A stretch of DNA of 64,000 nt, taken from contig NC_052156.1 in NCBI RefSeq assembly GCF_902713615.1, positions 59,177,631 through 59,241,630 of the forward strand, given 5' to 3'. This DNA is from Scyliorhinus canicula (Eukaryota). A program made the position numbers and the translations under genes. Under the pieces are notes generated by a model, which worked only from the letters and a program-made list of their open reading frames with translations, was not told the origin of the DNA and ran no database searches. Shown in pieces: positions 1-61,473 of this stretch. The stretch's first letter is position 1; the number at the start of each line of letters is the position of its first letter.

Positions 1-355
1 AGGAAACAGGCTTCCGACACACGAGATGGTCCAACACTGTTTTATTGAACCTGTTGATTGCTGTACATAATCTGCTGTGGGTTGACACTCTATTAACCTA
101 ACTGATAACCTCCTACTGGCTTGACCAGACTAGCTCTCTATCACATGGTGATGATGTTCATTGGCCTGTGCACTGCGACGATCTCCCTGGCCGTGTCCTG
201 TGAGAGAGGGAGAGCCTTAATGCCCTTTCAGCTTTATAGTGGTGGTGTCCTGTCTGGTGATTGGTTGTTCTGTGTAGTGTGTGTTCATTGGTTATCCTGT
301 GTGTCAATCACTGCCTGTCTGCATCTCATGATATACATGAGTGGATATTATGACA
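1..355 (-). repeat. 3' LTR of element 1 (partial)
   Basis: Matches 4784-5138; abuts the polypurine tract. Confidence 0.93.
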
Positions 356-469
356 TCTCCCCCTTTTAAAATAAATTTTGGAACGTGGCTGTATATGCAT
401 GTATATCTATATACAAGTGGGGAATGAATGAACATATGTACATGGGAAGGTGTCTATCGTGCAGATACA

Positions 470-3400
470 GAGCAAACTGAACAGAATTTACAAGATTTAA
501 GTCTCTAGATTCAGTCTTTGTGGTGGGTGACGAATTCTCATCGATCGCTGCAGAGGTGGAAGGTGGGGACGGCGGCACCTGGACAGGCTGCCATCTCGGT
601 GGCCTTGTGGACAGGTGGCATCGCTGCCAGATCGGTGGCCTCATGGTGCAAGATGTCCGGAGGAGGCATGATGACATGCGGAGAAGTGTGGTCGGGTAAT
701 GGGCAGGGAACTTTACGCAGCGCCCTCCTGTTGTGCCGTAAAATGGAGCCATCAGCCATTTGGACAATGAAAGACCTAGGAGCAGCCTGTCTGATGACAA
801 CAGCTGGGGCTGATCAACTTCCCTCAGGCAGCTGAACGCGAACAACATCATCTGGAGCCAGCGCAGGCAGATCCGTGGCATGAACATCATCCGTGATCTT
901 CTGCTGGTCCCTGGATCGCTGCACCTTCTGCAGCACCGTGAAGTGGTCAAGGTCTGGAACATGGATGGCTGGAACAGTCGTCCTCAGGTTGCGGTTCATG
1001 AGCAACTGCGCCGGAGACAAACCAGTCGACAGAGGGGTTGCCCTGTATGCCAATAGCGCAAGGTTGAAATGCGAGGCTGAGTCTGCAGCCTTGCACAGCA
1101 ACCGCTTGACAATATAGACCCCTTTCTCGGCCTTCCCGTTTGCGGGTAATGGGGACTGGATGTGATGTGACTAAAGTGGTAGTATCGTGCAAAGTCGGAC
1201 CACTCTTGGCTGTAGAAACATGGACCATTGTCACTCATTACTGTGAGTGGTATCCCATGCCTGGCAAACGTCTCTTTGCAGGCTTTGATGACGGACTTGG
1301 ACGTGAGGTCCGACAGTTTCACCACTTCCGGGTAGCTGGAGAAGTAGTTGACCAGGAGCACGTAATCACGCCCATTGGCGCGAAAGAGATCTATCCCCAC
1401 CTTGGACCACGGAGAGGTTGCAGCGTTTCCTTGGGCTGAGCTGGTTGAAACTTCTGGCATGTTGTGCAGTTGATGACTGTGTTGGCAATGTCCTGGCTGA
1501 TGCCAGGCCAGTAAACTGCCTGCCGAGCTCTGCGTCGACATTTCTCGACCCCCAGGTGACCCTCGGATCTGTCTGAGCACCAGGCTTTGCATGTTTTGGG
1601 GAATGACAATTCTATATAGTTTAAGAAGGAACCCCTCAACAACCATCAGCACATCCTTAACGTTGAAGAACTGGGGGCACTGCCCCTTTTGCCAGCCATG
1701 GGCGAGGTGCTTCATCACGCCCTGTAGTAGGGGATCTTTGGCAGTTTCTTCGCGTATTTGTATAACTCGTTCATCAGTGGCGGGGTAGTTGCTGGCACAC
1801 AGCTGCACCTGTGCTTCAATGTGGCGAATGAAGTCGCCCTGTTCACATGGCATGGTGACGGATCGGGATAGGGTATCCGCGACGATCAGCTCTTTACCCG
1901 GTGTGTAGACCAAAGTCATATCGGCGGAGATGAAGAAGAATCCGCTGCAGCCGAGGTGTCATATCATTTAAATCCTTCTGGATTATGTGGACTAAAGGCC
2001 TGTGGTCTGTTCCCACCGTGAACTTTGGCAGGCCGTAGACGTAGTCATGAAATTTGACTATTCCTGTCAGGAGACCCAAGCACTCTTTTTCGATCTGGGC
2101 ATACCGTTGTTCGGTCGGAGCCATGGCCCTGAAGGCGTATGCCACTGGAGCCCAGGACGAGGAGTCGTCTCGCTGGAGGAGCACCGCCCCAATGCCGTCC
2201 TGGCTTGTGTCTGTGGGTATCTTGGTATCCTTGGTTGGGTCAAAGAACGCCAGTACTGGGGCTGTGGTGAACTTCACCTTCAGCTCAAGCCACTCCGCTT
2301 GATGTGCGGGAAGCCACTGGAACTCTGTCGACTTTTTTACGAGATGCCGAGGGCTGTGGTGTGGGATGCCATGTTGGGAATGAATTTCCTGAGAAAATTC
2401 ACCATCCTGAGGAAACGGAGGACCGCCTTTCTGTCCTCTGGGGCCTTCATGGTATTGATTGCCAGCACCTTGTCAGTGTCAGGTTGCACACCCTGCTGTG
2501 AAATGTGGTCACCCAGAAACTTGATAGCGGACCTACCAAATGAGCATTTGGCCCTGTTCGAGCTGGAGGCCGTTTTCATGTATCCTCTGGAAAACTTGTT
2601 TGAGGCGAGCGATGCGATCCTCGGGTGTCGTGGACCAGATGATCACGTCGTCCACATAGACTCGGACCCCCTCGATGCTCTCCATCATTTGCTCTATTAT
2701 GCGATGAAATACTTCGGAAGCTGATACGAAATCAAAAGGCATGGGGTTGTAGCAATACCTGCCGAACGGAGTGTTAAACGTGCACAGCTACCGACTGGAC
2801 TCGTCCAGCTGTATCTGCCAGAACCCACGGGAGGCGTCCAGCTTGGTAAAGAATTTGGCATGAGCCATCTTACAGGTTAACTCTTCACGCTTCGGGATCG
2901 GGTAGTGCTCGCGCATGATGTTGCGATTCAGGTTTTTGGGATCAATGCAAATGCGGAGTTCACCAGAGGGCTTCTTGACGCAGATCATGGAGCTGACCCA
3001 GTCTGTTGGTTCCGTGACCTTTGAGATGATTCCCTGGTGTTGGAGCTCTCGTAGCTGCGTTTTCAGACTTGAGAGGAGTTGGAACCCGGCGTGGTGCATG
3101 GATTACTGGGATGGCATTCGGTTTGAGCAATATCTTGTAACGATATGGGAGCATGCCCATTCCGTCAAAGACGTTGTGCCATTGCGTGAGAATGTCGTCT
3201 ATCTCAGCCTGGAGATTTACATTGGGCGAGGCAGTCGCTGGTGTCGAGGACATGGCATGGACCCGCTGGACCAGATTAAGGAGTTTGCATGCGCGAGCAT
3301 CGAGGAGGGATGCCCCAGGCCGGACGATCTCGAATAGTAATGTTGCTTTGATTGCCTTGTGAGATACACCTAGCTGACACGATCCACTGGCAGCTATGGC

Positions 3401-3517
3401 ATTGCCATTGTAGTCAAGGAGCTGGCAGGCTGGTGGAAGAATGCTAGGTTGGTCTTGGATGCTGTCGAGGTCTGACTGTGATATGAGGTTTGCAGATGCG
3501 CCAGTGTCCAATTTAAA
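470..3517 (-). pseudogene. pol: Pol of element 1 (protease, RT, RNase H, integrase), frameshifted
   Basis: LDTGA protease; KLDASRGFWQ and YVDD RT; YAQIEKE and TDHRPL RNase H; HLG...CTTC, VGIDLF, SDNGP integrase across several ORF fragments. Confidence 0.92.
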
Positions 3518-4654
3518 TCAGATGTGAGACTGGTTAACCGTGACGACAGCACACCACTCGTCAGGATCCACAGGGAGGATTGAAAGGCGGTTTGCAGGCA
3601 CGGTGGAGGCCAGCTCGCGCGTGGTGATTATGCCCACCCGATATGGAGACTCGAGGCAGTCAGCATCGGGGTCCGTTGGGCTGTCGGGATCAGAATCCTG
3701 CATGTCTTGTTGTACGCAGCGGACACGTCTGCACTGCAGCTGGGATCGCTGGCTGTTGGTCGGTGGAGTGGACCTGCATACGGCTGCGTAATGCCCAGGC
3801 TTTCCACACTGTAGACATCGCCTTCCTTTGGCTGGACATTGCCGCTTTAAATGGGCGGAGCCACAATTTGGGCACGTCATAACGCTGACGTCAGCGCATT
3901 CCATGCGCCATCGCGCATGCGCAGTATGGTCGGCTGACTTTTGCACATGCGCATCAGGGTCTTCGGCCTCATCGTCCACCCGGCCATGGAGCGCATGCGT
4001 AGGGACCCGGGAAAAGCACGCAAAACGGCCACTCTCCTCACTGCTCAGGCCTTGCATTTTTGCGATGGCCTGCACTCTTTCTGCCTCGTGGGAGACTAGT
4101 TTTGCATTTTCTGCCACCCTGATGCGGGAGTAAAGATTCCTGGCATGCTCATGGTCAACGCACATTTCGATGGCGATGGAGAGGGTCAACTGTTTGACTT
4201 TGAGGAGCTGCTCCCGCAGGGAGTCGGACTGGACCCCGAAAATGATCTGATCCCGGATCATAGAATCAGCCATCGAGTCATAATTACGTGACTGTGCTTG
4301 GATGCGGAGATGGGTCAAGAAGGACTGAAAAGGTTCATCCTTACCCTGAAGCCTCTGTTGGAAGATGTACCGTTCAAAGCTCTCATTGACCTCAACGTCG
4401 CAGTGGTTGTCTAATTTCAGCAGAACCGTCTTGAACTTTGTCTCGTCTTCGCCATCGGCAAACGTGAGCGAGTTATAGATGTGGATGGCGTGGTCCCCCG
4501 CAGTCAACAGAAACAGCGCGATCTTTCGGGCATCCGATACTGCCTCGAGGTCGGAGGCCTCTATATACAGGAGGAACTTCTGTTTGAAGACTTTCCAGTT
4601 GGCGCCGAGGTTGCCGGAGATCTGGAGTAACGGAGGATGTTGGATCTTTTCCGT
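3518..4654 (-). pseudogene. gag: Gag of element 1 with two zinc knuckles
   Basis: ORF 3518-4507 extends in frame to ACG at 4654 (likely mutated ATG); CPNCGSAHLKRQC and CLQCGKPGHYAAVC knuckles. Confidence 0.88.
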
Positions 4655-4732
4655 GCCGCTGGATGGCTGCGTGCTAGTCTTTGCAGATTCACTCGAGGTA
4701 GGTTTGTTAGACTTAATAGCTCTCTGGTACCA

Positions 4733-5138
4733 TGATGTGTTATCTGTGTTGGTCTAACATCGACTGCAACTGGATGCAGTAAAACGAGAAACAGGCTTCC
4801 GACACACGAGATGGTCCAACACTGTTTTATTGAACCTGTTGATTGCTGTACATAATCTGCTGTGGGTTGACACTCTATTAACCTAACTGATAACCTCCTA
4901 CTGGCTTGACCAGACTAGCTCTCTATCACATGGTGATGATGTTCATTGGCCTGTGCACTGCGACGATCTCCCTGGCCGTGTCCTGTGAGAGAGGGAGTCT
5001 TAATGCCCTGTGGGCTTTATAGTGATGGTGTCCTGTCTGGTGATTGGTTGTTCTGTGTCGTGTGTGTTCATTGGTTATCCTGTGTGTCAATCACTGCCTG
5101 TCTGCATCTCATGATATACATGAGTGGATATTATGACA
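4733..5138 (-). repeat. 5' LTR of element 1 (406 bp)
   Basis: On minus strand starts TGTCATAAT, ends ACATCA, followed directly by TGGTACCAG. Confidence 0.93.
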
Positions 5139-17376: not shown

Positions 17377-18059
17377 GCCTGTGTGTTGACTGGAGTGAGT
17401 GGCAAGGAAATGTTTAAAAGCAGCTCCCCCTTGTTAGCAGCAAGATGCTGAGGCGGGAATGAGACGGCGAGACGGCCAATAATGGCTAGATGCTCGTTGG
17501 GGCTCATCTCGCAAATCACGCCCAAAATGACACTCAGAAATGTTTCCGTTAAATCCCACCCTTTGTCTCCCAAATGTATAATATTTAGTGTTTACTTTTG
17601 TTCTGTTTTAAACCGTGGTGTCTTGCGTTTTTTCTGGTAAATTACTGGAATTTTAGATTTTATTAAAAAAGAACAGTTCCTGGTCTCTGTGGTGTTTGTA
17701 TCTCTGTGTAGATGCAATACCACTGAGCAAGCACTAGAGGGAGCACGGGAGAGATATAAATACGCACGAACAGGAAGTCAGGACACACTTCACAGGAACG
17801 GGAACTGGTAGCAAGACATAGGCAAGCAGCATGGATGTAACCTTAAGTTAAGCACTGAAGAGAGAACAAACTTACAATAAAGCATCTACTTCAACTTTAA
17901 GACTACGAGCTTAATTAAGACACAAGGAACACCACATGGTACCAAGAGTGGCTTCAGAACCTTTACTATAAGATTGCGCAAACTGCACACATAGAAAGAC
18001 CAAAATGGCAAGGAAAACTCCTACTGGCCATTCGACCATGGGAAGACTTTGCTAATTCG

Positions 18060-20569
18060 ATGATATTGACTGGAACACCACCTCAGCTGAACATAACCGG
18101 TAATTTAAGTAATGCCTGGAAAAGATTTAAACAAATGTTTGATATATATATCATAGCTAATGATTTAGAAGCAGCCTCAGACGAAATGAAAATAGCACTG
18201 CTCATCGGAGGACATGAAGCCAGAGAAACATATAATTGCTTTAAATACTTGAAAGATGAAGACAGCACCAAATTAGAAATAATACCAAAAAAATTTGAAG
18301 AGTACTGTATGGAATTTGTACAGTACTGTATGCTCAAAGACCAAACTGCACAGGGACTGAGTGATGCAAAACTCAAACAATCACTATCAGAACAGAAAGG
18401 GTTCAGTCTAGAAATCGTGAGTGAAAAGTCCAGATCGAAAGGAAAAAGTAACTTGAACTTTTCACAAAGACAAAACGCTGAAATCCAGTCCAGATCGAAA
18501 GGAAAAAGTAACTTGAACTTTTTAGAAAGAAAAAAACGCTGAAATCCACTGTAAAATGGCATCTGAGCACATTTCACAGTCTCTGGGGAACAAAAGACGA
18601 AAATCTGTTTCTGTGCATGCGCAGGAAACAGAAGCCGCGCATGCACAGTTAAAATCAGCTGTTTTGCGTTCTGCGCATGCCCAAGCCACGCATGCCCAGT
18701 TGAAAGGAACGAGTGCACCATTCGAAGATGGTTCTGCGCATGCGCAAGCCGCGCATGCGCAGTGGACACAAAACCGCACAGTAAAGGAAGACCGATTTGC
18801 GCATGTGCAATCGATTCCTACACATGACGTCATGAGCGTCATGACGTCTGAGGACCCGGACCACGCCCATTTAAAAGGGAAACGCCCGAAAATTAAAAAG
18901 AAGATACTTAAAGCTGTAAAACCCAATTTTCTTACCTCAAAATATTGAAAAACGCCTGAATTTACACCAGCAGTTCAAAATAACTCTCACAACACCTTGG
19001 AACAAGCAGTCTGCACCACCCAAAGTGAAGAGAACAAAAACAATTCCAAAACAAAAAAAGATGAAGAAAACGATACCAAATCCGAAGCAAAAAAAGATGA
19101 TATGTTTTTCGAACAATACTACTCAGGCATGGCTGAGTTATTCGGATATGCTGATCACAGCATCAGCAACACGGTCGCAAAGCTCAACACGACTCTACTC
19201 ATGGTAGCTGAATCCAACACCATGGTGCCATGGCAGATCGTCGATACATTGGATGACAGCAATACCCAAGACGAAGACGACGCCACACAGAGAGCACAGA
19301 AAGACTCCACAGAGAGAGTGATGAAAGACTCCACAAAGAGAGTGACGCGAGCCTCCACAGACAGCTTGTTGAAAGACTGAAATGGAAGCAAGCAAACACT
19401 CTCTAGCGAACACCATGCATAAACAAGACCATGAAGGTCAACCCACCATATCTGAGCAACCACAAGCAGACTATGAAAGTCTACCAAGCTCACATAATCA
19501 AGAAGAAGATAATGTAAATCTACCCACTGCATGCGAAAACAGTGACAATGTGATCACACTCGACATACAGGAGGTGCAGGATCACAGTGAGACTGACAGA
19601 TCTAAGTTTGTCTGTACAGAAGCACAGAGTAGGGCTACCCAAGAGTCCAGAGAGACCACGTCAATAGAAATCATGAAGATTTTGACTCCAGAAGAGGAGC
19701 ACCAAGAGTCCAGAGAGACCATGTCAATAGAAATCGTGAAGATTTTGACTCCAGAAGGGGAGCACCAAGACCAACAAGAAAATTAAGTTGTGAAGAATTT
19801 GAACCCAGAAGAGGAGCACCAAGAAAGCAAAGAAGAGGAATTAAATCCACCACAAATGACTCCAGAAGAGGAGTACAAAGGAAGCAAAGAAGAGGAATCA
19901 AATCCACCACAAATGACTGATGTCACCAGCATCAATGCAACATCGGATCATTCTCACCATTCTCTAGATGAAACGTTCAATGTAACAGATACCACAAGGG
20001 ACACTCGCACCAATAACTGTGACAATGACTCAAATTATCCACACTGGACACTCATTGAGCACAACAAGAAAAACAAAAACCACAAGAAGCACAGCAGAAA
20101 CAAGAACAACAACAGCAAGAACAAAAGCAACATGAAATGCAACAAGAACAACAAAAATCGCAAGAAGCGCTGCAGAAACAAGAACAACAGCAACAACAAA
20201 AACTACAAGAAGAACAACAAAAACAACAAGAAGCATAACAAAAACAACAAGAACGACAACGAAAACAAAAAAGACAGAAACGACAGAAACAACAACAATG
20301 AAACGACGACTTGTACACAATGGTACAACTCTGCACATGAAGGACAATGCCACAGCACACTGCAAAACAATGACAAGACTACAAACATGCCATGGGATGA
20401 CAACGAATCTCACAAACTCACATCTGCTCCAGAACAAGCAAACACACCAGCTTTCAAGGCAGATGACACACTAAATCAATACCACAAGCACAGAAAAAAA
20501 AAGTCCATGTCAGTCAACATCAGTGGTTCAACCATTCTAACACCTTGGGATGACGTATTGGTTACTTAA
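18060..20569 (+). pseudogene. Disrupted long ORF: Gag N-terminus fused to AHAQ repeats, acidic repeats and an N/K-rich tract
   Basis: Five consecutive plus ORFs joined by about 2 frameshifts and 2 stops; N-terminus PPQLNITGNLSNAWKRFKQ...EAASDEMKIALL aligns with element 1 Gag. Confidence 0.7.
20060..20300 (+). repeat. Imperfect (AAC/AAG)n microsatellite encoding the N/K-rich tract
   Basis: Visible trinucleotide repeats. Confidence 0.9.
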
Positions 20570-22469
20570 AAAAACAAGAACACCGACAACATTCAAAACG
20601 GAGTTGCAATATCAATATCACCACGTCAACAACGAAAAAGAAAAAACTCATAGAACAAATTCATCAAGTTTGGACTCATAAATATAAATTCGCTTTGTAA
20701 AATATCCAATATCACCATCACTTGTATAGATACACATATCATAGGTAATCTAACGGTTTTGTACAATTTTCTTTAACAATGTACAGAAAATATGTAAAGA
20801 AAAAAGGGGGATGTGGTGATTGTATATCTGTGTAGATGCAATACAACTGAGCAAGCACTAGAGGGAGCACGGGAGAGATATAAATACACACGAACAGGAA
20901 GTTAGGACACACTTCACAGGAACGGGAACTGGTAGCAAGACATAGACAAGCAGCATGGATGTAACCTTAAGTTAAGCACTGAAGAGAGAACAAACTTACA
21001 ATAAAGCATCTACTTCAACTTTAAGACTACGAGCTTTATTAAGACACAAGGAACAACACAGTCTCCACCAAGATCATAACATTATGGTAACATTCTAACC
21101 TAAGGTTACTAGCCTGAAATTCCACCCACCGAAGTCCATGGACGTTTGAATGTGTTTGCCACATTTTACTGACCGCCCCTCTAGCAACAGGATCCCAAAA
21201 TTCTGGTTGCAGAGTCAACAAAGGAATGGGTTTATAATTAGTGGGGTAGATTTAGAAAGCAAATCAATCTAAGCACATAAAATCTTTACTATGCTAAAGT
21301 GTGATATACTTCAAAGTAACTTAACATATTTAACCATACATTAATGATTGTCACTCCTTTTAAGTGACACTTGTCTTTGCAACACTGAATCAATACCACT
21401 TTACTGTGCTTCTAGCGACCTTGCATAAGGTAACATTAAAACAGAAGATCAGGCCATATTCCATACAACACTCTGAAATATCAGTAATCCATGAGGAATA
21501 TATAAACCAACAGGATTGAGCATCGCTAAAATGGTTTGATATGCAAATTTGTTCATTTAGAAGTCCAATTCTCCTTTTAACCTTGTATGGCCTGAACTCA
21601 GAATTCTTGTATAATCTTTATAAAATGTCTAAGGCTTTTAAAATGCCTTTTTTAACTTGTTACACTGATGTATAAAATTACTGTTGTCAGAAGAGATTAA
21701 AATATAATAGCTATATAAAATGAGATTTTCACAGAATTCTGAATCACATGATGTAATTCAAGTCACTAACGGGGCCGAGCAAGTAGTTTTAAAGAGAGGT
21801 TTGTAACCAAATATTTGATTGCGAATTAATTCACAGAATGGTGAGAATGCAAATATATTTTGGTATTTGTTTAAAAAAATATTATTTCTGCATTACTGTA
21901 AGATAAGGACGGTTTTGCTGGAACTACTAATCCAACTTCAGGGACTATCTATTGTGTCAGGCTTTACTTGTGTCCCATTCAGAATATAAATTGGGTCAAG
22001 TTAGCCGTCACCCTCTACCAGATGCTCAGTAATCTATTCATAAAACCCCAGGTAATTTCATTAACCTGCTGCCCAGGGGAGGATATTGTGATGGATTGGG
22101 TGGTTTGTTTTGTCACTATCTACGTTTTGAGTTTGGTCACCTTACTGGGAGAAGTTTGACGCGGACTGCAGACTCTGTGGATAAAGACAAACTAATTAAA
22201 GTTCCATTGCAAACAGGCAGGGTGATTGTTGGTCCATTTAGTTCAAAACAGTATTTTAATCAGTAATAAAATTGATGAATACTACAGTTGGAATTTGTGG
22301 TTGTGTTTTTCACCAACAAAGGTAACTAAGGTAACAAATCTAAACTATGCTTCTATTTCACTGTTGTCTTTCAGTAATCATATTGAAATTAATATTCAGG
22401 ATAGCATTCTTTTGTATGGGTGAGGAGAGTGGGCCTGTACCAGGGAAGCGATGAGGTATTGTATTTGAT

Positions 22470-53283: not shown

Positions 53284-54057
53284 GAAAAGGATAAGAACGC
53301 AAAATCTTTGCTACACCAATGCTGCTGACAGAGGGGTGCCAAATATCGGTAGCAGCCATCGAAGGAACCAAAATGTAAATGTAGATTTCAGAGGAAACAA
53401 CATCGAAAAGAAGCTTGCCATGTTCTGCCCAGAAAGATCTGGAACAGTACAGGGAGCAGAGTGAGTAACAAGTACCTTTCAACAATAGTTTCGAGCCAGG
53501 GGAGAGGGAGTTCAAAACTCGGAAGAAAACAGGCTGAGCCCGGGGTACCTTGTTTGAAAAATGAAGAAAGGTGGTGCTAAATATTTTGTGATCTATCGTG
53601 CTTACACGAACCCTTTCCATAGTAAAAATGGTGGGAATCTCTGGCGCCATCGGATTGTATGCTGAGGATACAAGCAGTGGAGTTTATATACTGAAAGATT
53701 TGATCATTTTGTTCAAGCGAATCAAATTGCGGCAGATAGCCCCAACTTTCCTGAGTATAAGGGGGAGGAAAATATTTAAACTCCTGTGAAATTGGGTGCA
53801 GCCAGTGTGGTAGTCACCACTGATGTGCAGACTGTATACATATTTGTTTTACAGTAAGGCCCCTGTACTACAGGTACAGGGGTAGATCCCTGCCTGCTGG
53901 CTCCGCCCAGTAGGCAGAGTATAAATATGTGTGCTCCCAATTCATCAGCTGCTGTAGGAGGCCACACATCTCTGTGTAATAAATCCTCGATTACATTCTA
54001 CTCTCGTCTTGTCGTAATTGATAGTGCATCAATTTATTACACAGAAGATTTTCAGAG

Positions 54058-54840
54058 ATGGACCTCCGCGTCAAGCCGGATCACCTGCAGCTGAATCCTG
54101 AAGCAGACAACGCCAAAAAGGACTTAGAACATTGGCTAGCCTGTTTTGAAGCGTACATCGGGTCAGCGCCAGACGCAATCCCAGAAGCACAGAAGCTCCA
54201 GATTCTGTACACACGGCTGAGCTACAACGTTTTTCCCCTCGTCCATGATGCACCGACCTACGCAGAGGCCATGGCACTACTGAAGGAAAATTACGCTCAG
54301 CGGACTAACAAAATCTACGCCAGGCATCTCCTCTCAACTTGGCGCCAACTTCCCGGTGAGTCTGTGGAAGATTTCTGGCGTGCCCTGCTCACCCTAATTA
54401 GAGACTGTGACTGCCAGGCCGTTTCCGCCACTGAACATTCGAACCTGCTGATGAGAGACGCATTCGTTACGGGCATAGGGTCTGACTACATTCGCCAGCA
54501 CCTCTTAGAAGGCTTGACCTCGCGGCGACCATAAAACTACTGCTCTCACTTACGGTCGCTTCACGCAATGTTCAGATCTATGCCCTCGACCGCGTGGCCC
54601 ACCCCCCCCCCTGTGCATCATGGACCCTGCAGACGGCCACCCCATCGTGGATCCCATCAGCGACCGCCCTCAGCCAACCCCACGCCTGAGCCGCGCAGCA
54701 GCCAACCAACCCTGGGAGACCCAAATGCTACTTCTGTGGACAGTCAAAACATCCCCGACAGCGCTGCCCGGCCCGGAGCGCCCACTGCAAGGCCTGTGGC
54801 AAGAAGAGACATTTTGCTGCAGTGTGCCAGGCCCGCTCAA
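54058..54840 (+). pseudogene. gag: Gag of element A with two zinc knuckles
   Basis: MDLRVKPDHL...RDAFVTG; CYFCGQSKHPRQRC and CKACGKKRHFAAVC after a frameshift. Confidence 0.85.
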
Positions 54841-56192
54841 TCCCTGCACCCTCCATGCCTCCGAAAATCGGCACTCCTCCATCGAAAAGGAGGCCCAAGC
54901 CATCGTTGACCTGCGCGGCATTGGAGGCATTACCTGGCCGGCAGGAGATTCACTCTCCTCACTGACCAACGGTCGGTTGCCTTCATGTTTAATAACACAC
55001 AGCGGGGCAAGATCAAAAACGATAAAATGTTGAGGTGGAGGATCGAGCTCTCCACCTACAATTACAAGATTTTGTATCTCCCCAGTAAGGTCAACGAGCC
55101 CCCCGATGCCCTATCCTGAGGTACATGTGCCTGCGCACAAGTGGACCAACTTCGGACGCTGCACGACAATCTGTCACCCAAGGGTCACCCGTTTTTACCA
55201 CTTCATCAAGGCCCGCAACCTGCCCTACTCCGTCGAGGAAGCCAGGGAGATCACCAGAGACTGCAAGGTCTGCACGAAGTGTAAACCGCACTTCTACCGA
55301 CCAGACCATGCGCGCCTGGTGGAGGCCTCCCGCCCCTTTGAACGCCTCAGCGTGGACTTCAAAGGGCCCCTCCCCTCCACCGACCGTAACACGTACTTCC
55401 TCAGTTTGGTCGATGAATATTCCCGATTCCCCTTTGCTGTCCCATGCCCCGACATGACGCCTGCCACCGTCATCAACACCATCTTCGATCTGTTCAGCTT
55501 CTTCAACTACATCCACAGCGACCGGGGATCCTCATTCATGAGCAATGAACAGGGGCTTTGCCTCGAGCAGGACGACCAGCTACAACCCCAGGGGAAGCGG
55601 GCAGGTGGAGCGGGAGAATGGGACGGTGTGGAGGGCCATCCAGCTGGCCCTACTGTCCAAACATTTCCCGGCCTCCTGCTGGCCAAGAGGTCCTCCCCGA
55701 CGCACTCCACTCCATTCAGTCGCTCCTGTGCACCGCGACTGACGTAACCCCCCATGAACGTCTCTTTGCCTTCCCCAGGATGTCCACCTCTGGGATTTCG
55801 CTCCCAACGTGGCTGGCAGCTCCAGGACCCGTTCTCCTCCGAGACACGCGCGGCTCCACAAGGCGGACCTGCTAGTTGAGAGGGTACAGCTACTCCACGC
55901 CAACCCGCAGTACGCTTACGTAGTGTACCCCGACGGCCACCAAGACATATTCTCCCTCAGGGACCAGGCACCAGCTGATTCCACACCCCACTCTGGCCCG
56001 ACGTCACCCTCCCTCCCCCCCGCACACCCCACCGCAGCCACTGCTCCAGGACAATCTGTCCTCCCCTTGCTCCCACCCGAGGATGAAGAGGACTTTGACA
56101 CACTCCCGGAGTCACCGAAGACCAAGCCGCGCCTGAGGCGCCACCAGCACTGCGGCGCTCTCGACGGCAGATCAAAGCACCGGACCACCTGA
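54841..56192 (+). pseudogene. pol: RNase H C-terminus and integrase of element A
   Basis: RHSSIEKEAQAIV; CHP...CKVC; VDFKGP, HSDRG, GQVERENG. Confidence 0.88.
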
Positions 56193-56567
56193 ATTTGTAA
56201 TATTCCCAGTGATTCTAAATGCAACTTGTCTGTATATAGTTCTCCACCACCCCCGCTGGACTCATTTTTTAACAGGGGGTGAATGTGGTAGTCACCACTG
56301 ATGTACATACTGTATATATATGGGTTTTACGGTAAGGCCCCTGTACTACAGGTACAGGGGTAGATCCCTGCCTGCTCCACCCAGTAGGTGGAGTATAAAT
56401 ATGAGTGCTCCCCGTAGAGTAGCCATTTTGTCAGCCGCTGTAGGAGGCAACACAGCTCAGTGTAATAAAGCCTCGATGACATTCTACTCTCGTCTCATCA
56501 TAATTGATAGTGCATCAGCCAGAAAAAACAGACTTGAAAACCTATCATGAGATTGTGGAGATAAACC

Positions 56568-56848
56568 TGTGGTGATATGAGTGGGAGCACTGCCGTTGGT
56601 GCAGAGCATTGGTTTCCCATTGGCTCTGGCTGGTCATGTGCCTCTCGCCTGATTGGCTGGGACTAGTCATGTGACTGCTCACCAATTGGTCGAGAGGCAA
56701 GTAGACCCCGCCTCCGAGGCCGGGTATAAGTACCCAGGTTTCCCGGCGATCGGCCTTTCTCTGTAGTCGACCACCGGGCTAACAACTAGCTGATTAAAGC
56801 CACAGTTTGGATCTTCATCGTGTCTCGCATCCAATTGATGGTACATCA
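56568..56848 (+). mobile_element. Solo LTR of family B (281 bp)
   Basis: Similar to 58291-58571; TSD AAACC. Confidence 0.93.
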
Positions 56849-57302
56849 AAACCTTTGCTCATCGGCAAAAGGTTCAGGTTTCATAAACGTAACCAACACA
56901 AAGGTGAATAAATTACATAGTTGGTAGCTACTTTGAAGTCATTAGCGGAATGCTATAAATTTGTGCATGTCTTGAACGCCAACATTAGGGACAGACTAGT
57001 GTGTGAATTAAGAAACAAAGCTATCCAAAAAAAGGCTGTTAACAGAAAGCAACGGAAACCAAAATAAGTCTTTAGAAGCTGCGATCTCAATGGAATTTGC
57101 AGCTAAGGATGCCCAACAATTGTGTTCAATCTCTAGAATCTATAAAATGTTGGCTGAGTCCCGAATAGACACAGGTTTGAAATTGCTACCGATGTCCAAA
57201 AAACTGGACACGCAGTAGCTGACAGTTGGTGCAAAGATACAAAATGCAGGAATTGTGGTAAAAAGGGGCACATCAAATATGCATATTGGGGAAAGAAACA
57301 AT

Positions 57303-57953
57303 GGGCTGGATTTCCGGCTGCCCAATGCCGAAATCAGAGCTGGCGCCGGGGCAGAGAATCCAGTTTGATGCCGTAATCGGGCCAGGTGCTGGTTCGGTGA
57401 TTCTCCAGGCACTAAAAATCGGCATCACCAGGGAGTACGGCGCGCCGCCGGGGGACCATAGCCAGAGACCCGCTCAACAATCCTCCGCTCCCGACCAGCA
57501 AGGTTCCCGACAGCGTGAAACTAACCTGCTATTGCTGGTCAGGATTCTCGCATGGTGGCTGCAGACTCAGTCCGTGGCCGTGCTGGTCGGGGGCAGGCGG
57601 ATCGGAGACCAGATGGGCCTCAGAGGCGGCCGGGGCATTAATGTGCGGGGTTTGAGGGTCAGCCGCGCGGTGGATTTGGGTGAGGGGGAGGGATCTCTTT
57701 CTTCGGTCTGACTCCGCTGTCCAAGTCTGTCATGGAGCACGGTACGGCTGCCAGCATGCACCTGAGCAGCCTTTGACCCGGACATGCGGAGGCCTGTATC
57801 TGCAGCAAAAGCTGCGAGATTCACTCCGGGTCGCTGCTAACCCCCTGCAGGGCTGAGAATTTGTTTCAATTTTTTTCAGGAATTTCAGGAGTAAAACTCC
57901 ACCATTTTGACACCGACGTAGGAACATAGCCTTAATAATGGAGAATCCAGTCC
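57303..57953. mobile_element. PIF/Harbinger-type MITE
   Basis: TIR GGGCTGGATT / AATCCAGTCC; 3-bp TSD AAT. Confidence 0.85.
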
Positions 57954-58594
57954 AATAATGTTCCAAACAAGAACTATAAAAGCAAGAACCAAGTGTATCA
58001 AATGGAAAACTGAATAAAGGGAAAAGAATCCCAACGTGACAGAAAATGGTGTGAAAAAAGAACAGAGTAATAGTCAGATAACAAACTGTCATTGAACGTA
58101 TTGGCCATGCGGGCACAGCAGACCATTACTGCATCACTCCTTTTACTGGACGGACAACTGATGAAAATGAAGGTAGACACTTAAGCAGCAGTTCTGTTGG
58201 TACCAGAACCTGTTTACCAAGAGAAAACATGATAATACTTATACTGGGGAAGTGGTTCCTTTGAGGGACTGCATCAATGCAAACGTGCAGTGTGGTGGTA
58301 TGGATAGGAGCACTGCCATTGGTGTAGAGCACTGGCTTCCCATTGGCTCTGGCTGGTCATGTGCCTCTTGTCCGATTGGCTGGGACTAGTCATGTGACTG
58401 CTTTCCAATTGGTCGAGAGGCAATTAGGCCCCGCCTCCGAGGTGGGGTATAAGTACCCAGAGTTCCCGGCGGTCGGCCATTCTCTGTAGTCGACCACCGG
58501 GCTAACAACTAGCTGATTAAAGCCACAGTTCGGATCCTAAATGTGTCTTGAGTCGAATTGATGGTACATCAATTTAATCAGCTAGAATTTTGGA

Positions 58595-59240
58595 ATGGAG
58601 CTTCGCATCAAGCCTGACTGCCTCCGCACCAGCCCGCATGCTGCAAATGCGCCTGCAATTTTTAAACACTGGCAGGCGTGTTTTAACAGTTACCTGACGA
58701 CTGCAGCCGGCAAGCCCACCAAGGAGCAGAAACTCCATATCCTCCACTCATGCGTGGGCACATCGGTCCACACAATGATCGAGGACGAAGGCGACTTTGA
58801 TTCTCAAAGGACACTTTCTCCGGCCGGTCAACGAAGTATACGCACGGCATCTCCTGACGACCAGACAACAGTTCCCTGGTGAGTCCCTCGACGGGTTTTA
58901 CCAGGCCCTCGCAGCTCTAGGGAGAACGTGCGCATGTCTCCAAGTTTCGGCGACTGAGCACGTGGAACTTCTAATCAGAGACGCTTACGTTGCTGGCATG
59001 CAGTCCCCTTCTATCCGCCAACGATTGCTGGAGAAGAACACCCTCAGCCTAGCTGAGGCACGGACTCTTGCAACCTATAGGTTGCTGACCTGAACGCCCG
59101 CGCATACGCCCCTGGCCGCGCAGCAACCCCCTGGACTTCATGGCACGCGCTACCCCCATCCTTCGTGGACCCCGACCCCCCCCCCCCAAGCCTGCGCTGC
59201 GGGTCGCTCCGACAAACTAGCAGGGCCCTGTTTGTATTTC
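58595..59240 (+). pseudogene. gag: Gag of element B, truncated at the first knuckle
   Basis: MELRIKPDCL...FKHWQACF; IRDAYVAG..IRQRLLE. Confidence 0.85.
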
Positions 59241-60669
59241 CGTGGCCTTCTTTTCACGAACCCTCCACGCTTCCAAAATCCGCCATTCCTCGGTGGAAAA
59301 GGAGGTACAGGCCATAGTCGAAGCTGTGCGATACTGGAGGCACTATCTGGCTGGCAGAAGGTTTACCCTCCTCACAGACCAACGGTCAGTAGCTTTCATG
59401 TTCGACAATGCACAGAGGGACAAGATTAAGAACGACAAGATCTTGCGGTGGCGGATCGAGTTGTCCACGTACAACTACGATATCTTGTATCGTCCTGGGA
59501 AGCTCAACTTGCCTTCCGATGCCCTATCCCGCGGTACCTGCGCCAGCGCGCAGATTGACCGCCTCTGCTCCCTCCGCACAGACCTCTGCCATCCAGGGGT
59601 CACCCATTTCTACCATTTTATTAAGACCCGCAACCTGTCCTACTCCGTCGAGGAAGTCAGGACCGTCACTAGGGACTGCCACATTGCGCCGAGTGCAAAC
59701 CACACTTCTACCGCCCCGAACGAGCGCATCTGATCAAGGCATCCCGCCCCTTTGAACGTCTAAGTATAGACTTCAAGGGTCCCCTCCCCTCCAACAATCG
59801 TAACACTTATTTCTTGAGTGTTATTGACGAATACTCTCGATTCCCTTTCGCCATTCCCTATCCCGACATGACCACAACAACCGTCATAAAGGCCCTCCTA
59901 TCCATCTTCTCCCTGTTCGGTACATCCACAGGACCGGGGGTCCTCTTTTATGAGTGACAAACTGCGTCAGTTCCTGCTCAGCAGGGGCATAGCCTCTAGC
60001 AGGACGACCAGTTATAACCCCCGGGGTAATGGTCAGGTCGAGCGGGAGAATGGCACCATTTGGGAGACCATCCTGCTGGCCCTACGGTCCAGAGATCTCC
60101 CTATTCCCCTTTGGCAAGAAGTCATTCCCGACGCCCTGCATTCAATCCGGTTTCTCCTCTGTACAACCATTAATCAAACACCTCATGAACGTCTTCTTGT
60201 TTTCCCCAGGAAGTCGTCCTCAGGATCCCCTCTCCCGACCTGGCTGGCCACCCCCCGGCCCATCTTGCTTCGGAAGCATGTGCGGGTGCACAAGTCCGAC
60301 CCGTTGGTTGAGCGAGTCCAGTTACTCCACGCCATCCCGCAATATGCGTACGTGGAGTATCCCGACGGTCGTCAGGATACGGTCTCGCTTCGGGACCTGG
60401 CACCCGCCGGCGTGCGGCCTTCTCCCCCTACACCAATACCTCCCCCCCCAACCCCAATTCCTCCCAGTGCCCCCCGCGCCCCCACGACCCAGCACACATG
60501 CCCCCTCTTCCCTGATTACATCGTCTCCACAACCGGCCGGGGTACGGAGACACATCTACAACCAACGCTCCCGGAGGCAAGGACGACCATCGGCCCGACA
60601 TCACCGGCTCCACTGCGACGGTCCTCTAGAACATCACGGGCACCCGACAGGCTGATCGTCTCCATCTGA
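59241..60669 (+). pseudogene. pol: RNase H C-terminus and integrase of element B
   Basis: VAFFSRTL..RHSSVEKE; TDQRSV; DFKGP; GNGQVERENG; PLRRSSR tail. Confidence 0.9.
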
Positions 60670-61473
60670 TGCGGCCATGGGACTTTTTTGGACATTTTTG
60701 TGTTATTCTGTTGTTATTAGTAGTAGTAGTATTGTTTTGCCACGAGCCAGTGGGCAGCTCACCCCTATCGATTTTCGCTGCTCATACCACCAGTCCTCGG
60801 ACCCCCCCCTCTCTAGCTCCCACTTACAACCCCCCACCTTCATTCTCCACAAGGGGTGAATGTGGTGGTATGGATATGAGCACTGCCATTGGTGCAGAGC
60901 ACTGGCTTCCCATTGGCTCTGGCTGGTCATGTGCCTCTCGTCCGATTGGTTGTGACTAGTCATGTGACTGGTCTCCAATTGGTCGAGAGGCAAGTAGGCC
61001 CCGCCTCTGAGGCAGGGTACAAGTACCCAGAGTTCCCGGCGGCCGGCCAATCTCTGTAGTCGATCACCGGGCTAACAACTAGCTGTTTAAAGCCACAGTT
61101 CAGGTCCTAAATGTGTCTTGAGTCGAATTGATGGTACATCATGCAGCTAAACACACAGACTGCAGATGTTCCCATGCACGCTATTCACATCATTAAAGGT
61201 AACTATCCAGCCCTAATGGGGAGAAGCTGGCTGGAGGGAATCATGCCAAACTGAATCGAGTTGAATCTCGTGTCAGGGTCTGAAGAAGGTCTACCAAAGA
61301 GTCCAAAGAAGCATGCCATGTAGAGCTGGGAAGCCTGAAAGAGGTTATAGTCAAGATAAAGATTAAGAACGAAAGCCAAGCAAGATGTTTAAAGGCTTAG
61401 GTCAGTGCCATACGCCATCAGGCCTAAGGTCAATACAGAGTTGAAGAGGCTAGTCAAAATGGGGGTCCTTGAA

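Follow-up and report, generated by a model that had tools for sequence, protein, structure and literature searches.

The leader that follows the 5' LTR in the Ty3/gypsy elements described here is read, with a probability of roughly 0.7, as a 13-nt site for tRNA-independent self-priming from the element's own LTR. At the level of sequence, the 13-bp match between leader and LTR, its fixed register (LTR end, 1-nt spacer, 13 pairs), the covariation of the two strands and the strict length of the duplex are shown directly, and the pairing feature spans, as judged from the relatives collected, a large non-chromoviral animal lineage of Ty3/gypsy elements. Element A and the related element B are both located in a stretch of 64,000 nt of Scyliorhinus canicula contig NC_052156.1 (the window). 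Their features, in positions of the window, are as follows:

53806-56517, plus strand: element A, a Ty3/gypsy copy with LTRs at both ends and a 5-bp target duplication
53801-53805, plus strand: left copy of the target-site duplication GCCAG of element A; the right one is at 56518-56522
53806-54031, plus strand: 5' LTR of element A, with TG...CA ends
53920-53926, plus strand: TATA box in the 5' LTR of element A
53937-53943, plus strand: initiator-like motif of element A, with transcription start predicted at A53939 from homology with relatives
53971-53983, plus strand: 13-nt LTR arm of element A, the predicted self-primer, with AATAAA at its 3' end (53978-53983)
between 53983 and 53984, plus strand: predicted cut in element A
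53984-54031, plus strand: U5 segment of element A, with an inner stem-loop that begins directly 3' of the arm (RCC in relatives) and an unpaired LTR end
54032, plus strand: 1-nt spacer between LTR end and primer-binding site of element A
54033-54045, plus strand: putative 13-nt primer-binding site (PBS) of element A, complementary to the LTR arm and without TGG
54058-54534, plus strand: 5' part of gag of element A, open for 158 codons and broken after that
54848-56048, plus strand: broken remains of the RNase H end and integrase of element A
56272-56283, plus strand: polypurine tract region of element A, preceding the 3' LTR
56284-56517, plus strand: 3' LTR of element A
58291-58571, plus strand: 5' LTR of element B, with TATA at 58448 and predicted start at 58479
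58509-58521, plus strand: 13-nt LTR arm of element B, differing in its letters from that of A and ending in ATTAAA
58573-58585, plus strand: putative 13-nt primer-binding site of element B, complementary to its LTR arm at 58509-58521
60861-61141: 3' LTR of element B, with target duplication TGCAG

Element A is internally deleted: protease and RT are gone, gag is broken, and remnants of integrase are left. Its two LTRs are identical in 200 of 222 aligned columns (~90%). The preliminary description of this DNA had reported that 54032-54045 and 53971-53984 are exact reverse complements of each other, AATAAA included, that the fold extends to 17 bp with one bulge, and that the gag ATG comes 26 nt after the LTR; all of this was reproduced, with the ATG at 54058. 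Among 3000 dinucleotide-shuffled LTRs, none matched the leader over 12 nt or more (best 11). The exact length of 14 bp holds for element A and not for its family. Among 62 distinct copies of family A, three were dropped (segment missing or match below 9/12), and of the 59 scored copies, 55 have G directly behind the hexamer and one has T. The element's own 3' LTR also carries G, and T53984 is private to the 5' LTR, so the duplex of the family comprises 13 bp, from leader nt 2 to the last A of the hexamer.

Folded alone, element A is no more stable than its shuffles (z -0.53), while element B reaches z -2.47; the case is a positional and comparative one, not energetic. An Rfam search of 53700-54300 gave no match at E 1. 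Reads from four raw-read RNA runs, compared with 53700-58950, cover leader and gag at low depth; most are 90-95% alike and thus derive from copies other than element A. Among the loose read ends listed for the four runs, there was no poly(A)-tailed end and no informative start or end.

Element B shows the same register as A with a different arm and leader sequence, and 30 loci of its family are alike, as judged by eye. Both A (54848) and B (59060-59242) are without protease and RT, keeping gag, integrase remains and all cis signals. About 50 nt past the 3' LTR of element A, a solo LTR related to element B (251/281 identical) occupies 56568-56848; inside it, repeated read starts at 56733 occur in two RNA runs, with the strand inferred as antisense.

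To sample the Scyliorhinus canicula genome (4.2 Gb), a pattern consisting of the LTR end, the first five leader bases and the gag start was used. It returned 18,252 matches versus 71 for the reversed control, and since it fixed the first five leader bases, most of the hexamer was built into that search. The sample examined comprises 70 of these loci, the first 30 listed and 40 picked from the next 70 for leader variety, with their LTRs unseen. It contains 45 different leader 12-mers. In 59/70 loci, leader and own LTR match at 11-12 of 12 positions, and in 63/70 the match lies 47-53 nt upstream of the LTR end, whereas a foreign LTR is matched this well in about 1/3886 cross pairs with leaders differing at 3 or more positions.

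Covariation had been proposed as a check on the duplex, and compensatory changes were indeed found. The consensus fold of 29 family representatives (27 clusters plus A and B) contains a 13-bp helix in which 8 of 13 pairs show two-sided changes, with a covariation score of 0.42 against 0.14 for shuffled and at most 0.11 for slid partners; these counts are inflated by relatedness, yet all four pair types are present at several positions. In family A, a T-A/A-T pair swap appears as 29 and 21 matched copies with 9 unmatched, and is counted as one inherited event, not 50. The outer helix contains 6 G-U and 9 A-C oppositions in 377 cells of the own-genome alignment, the inner U5 helix 42 and 5, respectively, in 232. 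The outer helix thus seems to behave like an enzyme substrate or a copied sequence, and the inner one like a helix that needs only stability. Linkage of the LTR arm with U3/U5 in family A offered too few markers (49 copies aligned, 13 dropped, LTR start missing), and partial correlations on which LTR copy supplies the arm were mixed over 58 loci.

Distant relatives were collected from metagenomes by pol motifs and not by leader: 79 loci, 47 with a gag start and 46 of these with enough upstream DNA. The leader matches the own LTR at 11-12 of 12 positions at 40/46 gag starts and, scoring the best member, in 22 of the 26 clusters formed at 75% gag identity. The remaining clusters are L115 and L159 at 8 and L148 and L156 at 10. 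In L159 and L115 the upstream DNA is short (92 and 118 nt) and the ORF of L159 is intact; either truncation or a real exception would account for their lack of match. Where both LTRs are present, the LTR ends with CA, followed by one base and the start of the duplex. Target duplications are of 5 bp in elements A, B and relatives. A loss of complementarity in intact autonomous copies had been named as an outcome that would count against the duplex; 10/12 intact elements with a full-length ORF keep matches of 11-12/12.

The length of the duplex is sharply defined. In 41 metagenome loci, leader nt 2-14 are Watson-Crick paired in 523/533 cells with 0 G-U; pairing then drops from 40/41 at leader nt 14 to 24/40 at nt 15. 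The strictness count is partly circular, as loci were chosen at 10/12 or more Watson-Crick pairs over nt 2-13; no such selection applied to nt 14 or to the drop at nt 15. Pairing in the own-genome set falls at the same place, from 0.85 to 0.52. Whole leaders measure only 15-47 nt, with free variation in the first 14 nt.

The preliminary description had seen no tRNA primer-binding site, which agrees with all leaders compared. TGG is present within the first 6 nt after the LTR in 0/72 own-genome and 0/46 metagenome leaders, and the best match to a tRNA 3' end was 7/12 among 41 distinct predicted tRNA genes (11 anticodon types), so these elements fall outside the tRNA-primed class. The best match to an internal tRNA segment was 10/12 in a scan of the same 11 anticodon types only. 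With 45 different leaders among 70 loci, no single host RNA can match them all, and this diversity would argue against priming by tRNA fragments. Elsewhere in the window, an unrelated Gypsy element with LTRs at both ends (3-5138, minus strand) has a leader which begins with TGG and matches its own LTR at just 7/12, representing an internal control for a tRNA-type site, with no matching tRNA in the small set scanned.

Motifs in the LTR suggest where the transcript begins. In 38 of the 40 own-genome loci that have an exact TATA, this box lies 72-87 nt upstream of the arm end, and its distance to the cut falls into two classes, ~75 and ~85 nt (L183-L252). In the same 40 loci, the initiator YYANWYY lies at TATA+30 to +33 in 23 of 25 matches. 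Over 63 loci, 23 initiator matches are placed 43-46 nt before the cut, 8 at 54 nt and 7 at 11-18 nt. Transcription start is accordingly predicted 43-45 or ~54 nt before the arm end, and with this start the arm would begin 30-40 nt inside the RNA. This accords with the earlier suggestion that the LTR partner is probably not at the cap. The distance of about 50 nt from TATA to partner given there becomes ~60 nt in typical copies, since the 5' LTR of element A lacks 12 nt between TATA and initiator when compared with its own 3' LTR. Among distant clusters, TATA at the same ~75-nt distance was observed in just one (L130, L147).

Around the predicted start, between TATA and arm, lies a GC-rich inverted repeat whose loop contains the initiator (L183-L252). 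As RNA it could form in the 3' LTR alone, immediately upstream of the arm, and might there be a 3'-specific poly(A) enhancer or an RT pause. A palindromic dimer signal between start and arm is present in a minority of the 63 loci. Extra pairing of the 5' extension with gag codons was considered and rejected, being not family-specific (own -19.2, cross -18.6 kcal/mol).

On the other side of the predicted cut, the motif RCC follows the arm directly in 20/22 metagenome clusters and is missing in L152 and L154. Its CC is predicted to be paired inside U5 with a probability of 0.81, versus 0.35 in shuffled sequences, and exceeds the shuffles in 20/21 families. The inner helix RCC/GGY opens at the base right after the arm, with C-G in 29/29 own-genome representatives. 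A second helix is therefore predicted to adjoin the strict one of 13 bp at precisely the point where a primer must have its 3' end. The earlier proposal that the duplex supplies the primer is strengthened by the strict Watson-Crick length of 13 bp and by this helix at the next base, and it is the probable reading of them.

The arm ends with AATAAA or ATTAAA in 13/22 distant clusters, and 9/22 are without the hexamer there; other arm ends are TTTAAA, GTTAAA, TTAAAA, TGAAAA, GATTAA, TCAAAA, ATTAAC, ACAAAT and TGAAGA. In three loci (L101, L104, L153), AATAAA/ATTAAA is located in U5 outside the duplex. Over 23 families, the mean predicted unpaired probability of the hexamer is 0.18 at the 5' LTR versus 0.70 in the 3'-LTR context. 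The idea, put forward previously, that the duplex hides the poly(A) signal is thus plausible in S. canicula but not general, and with the hexamer in only 13/22 distant clusters masking is a plausible side role and not the core one. We consider it close to an even bet that it is a side benefit and not the defining function. Some retroviruses suppress the 5' poly(A) site by RNA structure, such as the HIV-1 poly(A) hairpin, and are still primed by tRNA. Common to both is a hexamer held in a helix at the 5' LTR; unlike in retroviruses, the partner here is the primer-binding site outside the LTR, and the helix therefore cannot form locally at the 3' LTR.

The proposed self-priming would proceed as follows. 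Transcription would start at the initiator ~31 nt after TATA, and the RNA would fold so that the arm pairs with the leader, abutting the U5 helix. The element's own RNase H might then cut at the junction of arm and U5 helix, and the freed A-rich 3' end would prime minus-strand DNA through spacer and U5. The short minus-strand copy could jump to the 3' end of the RNA by means of a short R, the stretch from the cut to the poly(A) site. Where the arm ends in AATAAA/ATTAAA, the duplex would also mask the 5' poly(A) signal up to the time of packaging.

A broader version, which we find rather doubtful, would see here a separate animal origin of self-priming, in which one 13-nt segment is both poly(A) mask and primer, is cut from inside the transcript at a helix junction measured by RT through its 13-bp polymerase-RNase H spacing, and is copied back by RT into the primer-binding site in each cycle. 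Copying of this kind would keep LTR arm and primer-binding site matched automatically, which is a speculative explanation of their agreement. If true, the primer sequence could drift freely (45 variants in 70 loci), leaving no fixed primer-binding site for host tRNA fragments to target. Copying back is favoured by Tf1, in which about half of the cDNA is described to carry the copied site (PMC11042837). According to PMC5371799, the primer-binding sites of Ty1 and Ty3 are not inherited from a primer copy, and copying is thus not the default explanation of strict pairing; the same source gives a polymerase-RNase H spacing of ~13 bp for Ty3 RT and a stop of Ty3 plus-strand synthesis 12 nt into its primer.

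Other explanations of the duplex have to be compared with internal self-priming. The genomic RNA could start at or just before the arm, with the capped first 13-19 nt as primer, if TATA and initiator drive another transcript or do not set the start of the packaged RNA. Such plain Tf1 geometry would agree with Tf1 and Tj1, which use the mRNA 5' end (PMC7175516, PMC4600332). A primer ending at 13 nt would be the simplest explanation of the sharp limit, and most distant families are without TATA at a fixed distance. It is nevertheless unlikely in view of the positions of TATA and initiator reported above, in which matches suitable for such a start are the 7 at 11-18 nt, against 23 and 8 farther upstream. 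In addition, a pyrimidine, which is a poor Pol II start, occupies the 13th position in 0.90 of weighted families.

The primer could also originate from the arm copy in the 3' LTR or from a dimer partner RNA, if the RNA circularises and the 3' arm, cut or ending at the hexamer, pairs with the leader. In accordance with this, a family-specific hairpin is predicted across the start site in RNA of the 3' LTR only, ending where the arm begins and leaving the arm single-stranded; its own pairs reach -19.5 kcal/mol, versus -14.2 across families and -11.7 when shuffled, with a median rank of 4/23 for the own partner, and Ty3 priming uses a 3' element (PMC5371799). The helix next to the cut speaks against it: in the S. 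canicula genome this helix pairs with bases just before the LTR end (the C-G found in 29/29), reaches past the expected poly(A) site and is consequently formable only in the 5' copy. Moreover, the local arm, only 25-70 nt from the leader, should win kinetically, which makes a 3' source quite improbable. Still more improbable is a duplex that is only a poly(A) occluder, with priming by a host RNA or tRNA fragment at an unrecognised site. The arm ends of the S. canicula genome and of the 13 distant clusters, the predicted pairing of the hexamer in the 5' LTR and its largely open state in the 3' LTR, and a tRNA scan of 11 anticodon types would fit an occluder. They have to be set against the 9/22 clusters that keep the duplex without the hexamer, the three loci with the signal in U5 outside it, and the fixed 1-nt spacer, 13-bp limit and G-U absence, for which an occluder has no need. 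The shortness of the leader and the freedom of its first 14 nt to vary also oppose this explanation.

Ty3/gypsy features of the elements include TG...CA LTRs, the target duplication and a polypurine tract, together with the order PR-RT-RH-IN, taken from full-length relatives. The latter encode a single-ORF polyprotein of ~1,200 residues with two CCHC knuckles and no env, and the closest solved structure to their RT is that of Ty3. A chromodomain family was found in none of four full-length polyproteins at E 0.001, and in this marker the lineage differs from the Tf1/sushi group. Named hosts of protein relatives span sharks (catsharks), rays, a sea anemone (Actinostola), a sea cucumber (Apostichopus) and parasitic nematodes (Trichuris, Trichinella); most matches carry no species name. 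Protein searches of the S. canicula genome gave 0 matches at a strict cut-off in one case and 5 loci in another, the Atlas search returned generic Gag clusters only, and no relative was found in the viral contigs searched. A search for a sushi-type comparator returned instead a large family of integrase-before-RT Gypsy elements in the same genome (L303-L322), a Gmr1-like arrangement.

Cigr-1 has a single ORF of ~1,200 codons and short LTRs. By marker row only, the present lineage is similar to the Cigr-1 clade (Ciona intestinalis, also molluscs), for which PMC2774666 gives two CCHC knuckles, integrase after RNase H, loss of GPY/F, no chromodomain and no env; GPY/F absence in the present lineage was judged by eye. 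Among flatworm elements, the LTR start TGTGGYG of CsRN1 (PMC3601003) resembles elements A and B, but CsRN1 has one knuckle, where the present lineage has two, and a GPY/F module (PMC2774666). Saci2/lennie elements are similar as well, Saci2 having a gag-pol fusion and a primer-binding site that varies between families; unlike the present elements, with 5 bp and no TGG, Saci2 has a 4-bp target duplication and is read as tRNA-primed (PMC12471100). The RT motif of the relatives had no match in full-text literature or in the searched supplement text (PMC6238403, PMC8556966, PMC12471100, PMC2774666, PMC2577118).

As described in PMC7175516, PMC4600332 and PMC6317226, Tf1/Tf2 of Schizosaccharomyces pombe, Tj1, Tf1/sushi elements and plant Tcn1 likewise have a primer-binding site by the LTR end which is complementary to their own LTR, without tRNA match and with a cut predicted at the duplex end. 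In Tf1, RNase H cuts the folded 5' RNA between bases 11 and 12, and the first 11 bases are the primer (PMC7175516). The extent and position by which PMC6317226 recognises a self-primer, at least 10 bp starting 0-5 bp after the LTR, are also found in the present elements. The best reading is that these elements would work like Tf1 self-priming, differing in where the primer lies, how long it is and how it overlaps the poly(A) signal. Here, 13 strict pairs stand against 11 in Tf1, a 1-nt spacer is present, the arm often ends in a poly(A) hexamer and, as predicted from motifs only, lies 30-40 nt inside the transcript, whereas the Tf1 primer is at the cap. According to PMC6317226, yeast Tf1-type chromoviruses are the only elements in which self-priming has been demonstrated; for a few plant groups, Tcn1 and TAR included, it is a prediction. 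In the TAR lineage (Houba, Osr-1) of plant Ty1/copia the prediction is likewise from LTR-PBS complementarity (PMC6317226); TAR belongs to another superfamily and kingdom and is an independent case. A literature survey by titles and abstract beginnings, with Repbase, GyDB and most subscription papers outside its scope, disclosed no report of self-priming in the present lineage or tied to a poly(A) signal, and it may have been noted before.

Annotation that requires a tRNA primer-binding site would likely miss or mislabel elements of this type. The fixed length of 13 bp, the adjoining helix and the location inside the transcript lead to exact predictions on an RT cutting its own primer, and on whether priming and the choice of poly(A) site are coupled. 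Apart from the transposable elements described, the window contains a CAA-rich tandem stretch (19856-20569) with an open frame of 237 codons rich in glutamine and glutamate, flanked by direct repeats at 17688-17936 and 20812-21060.
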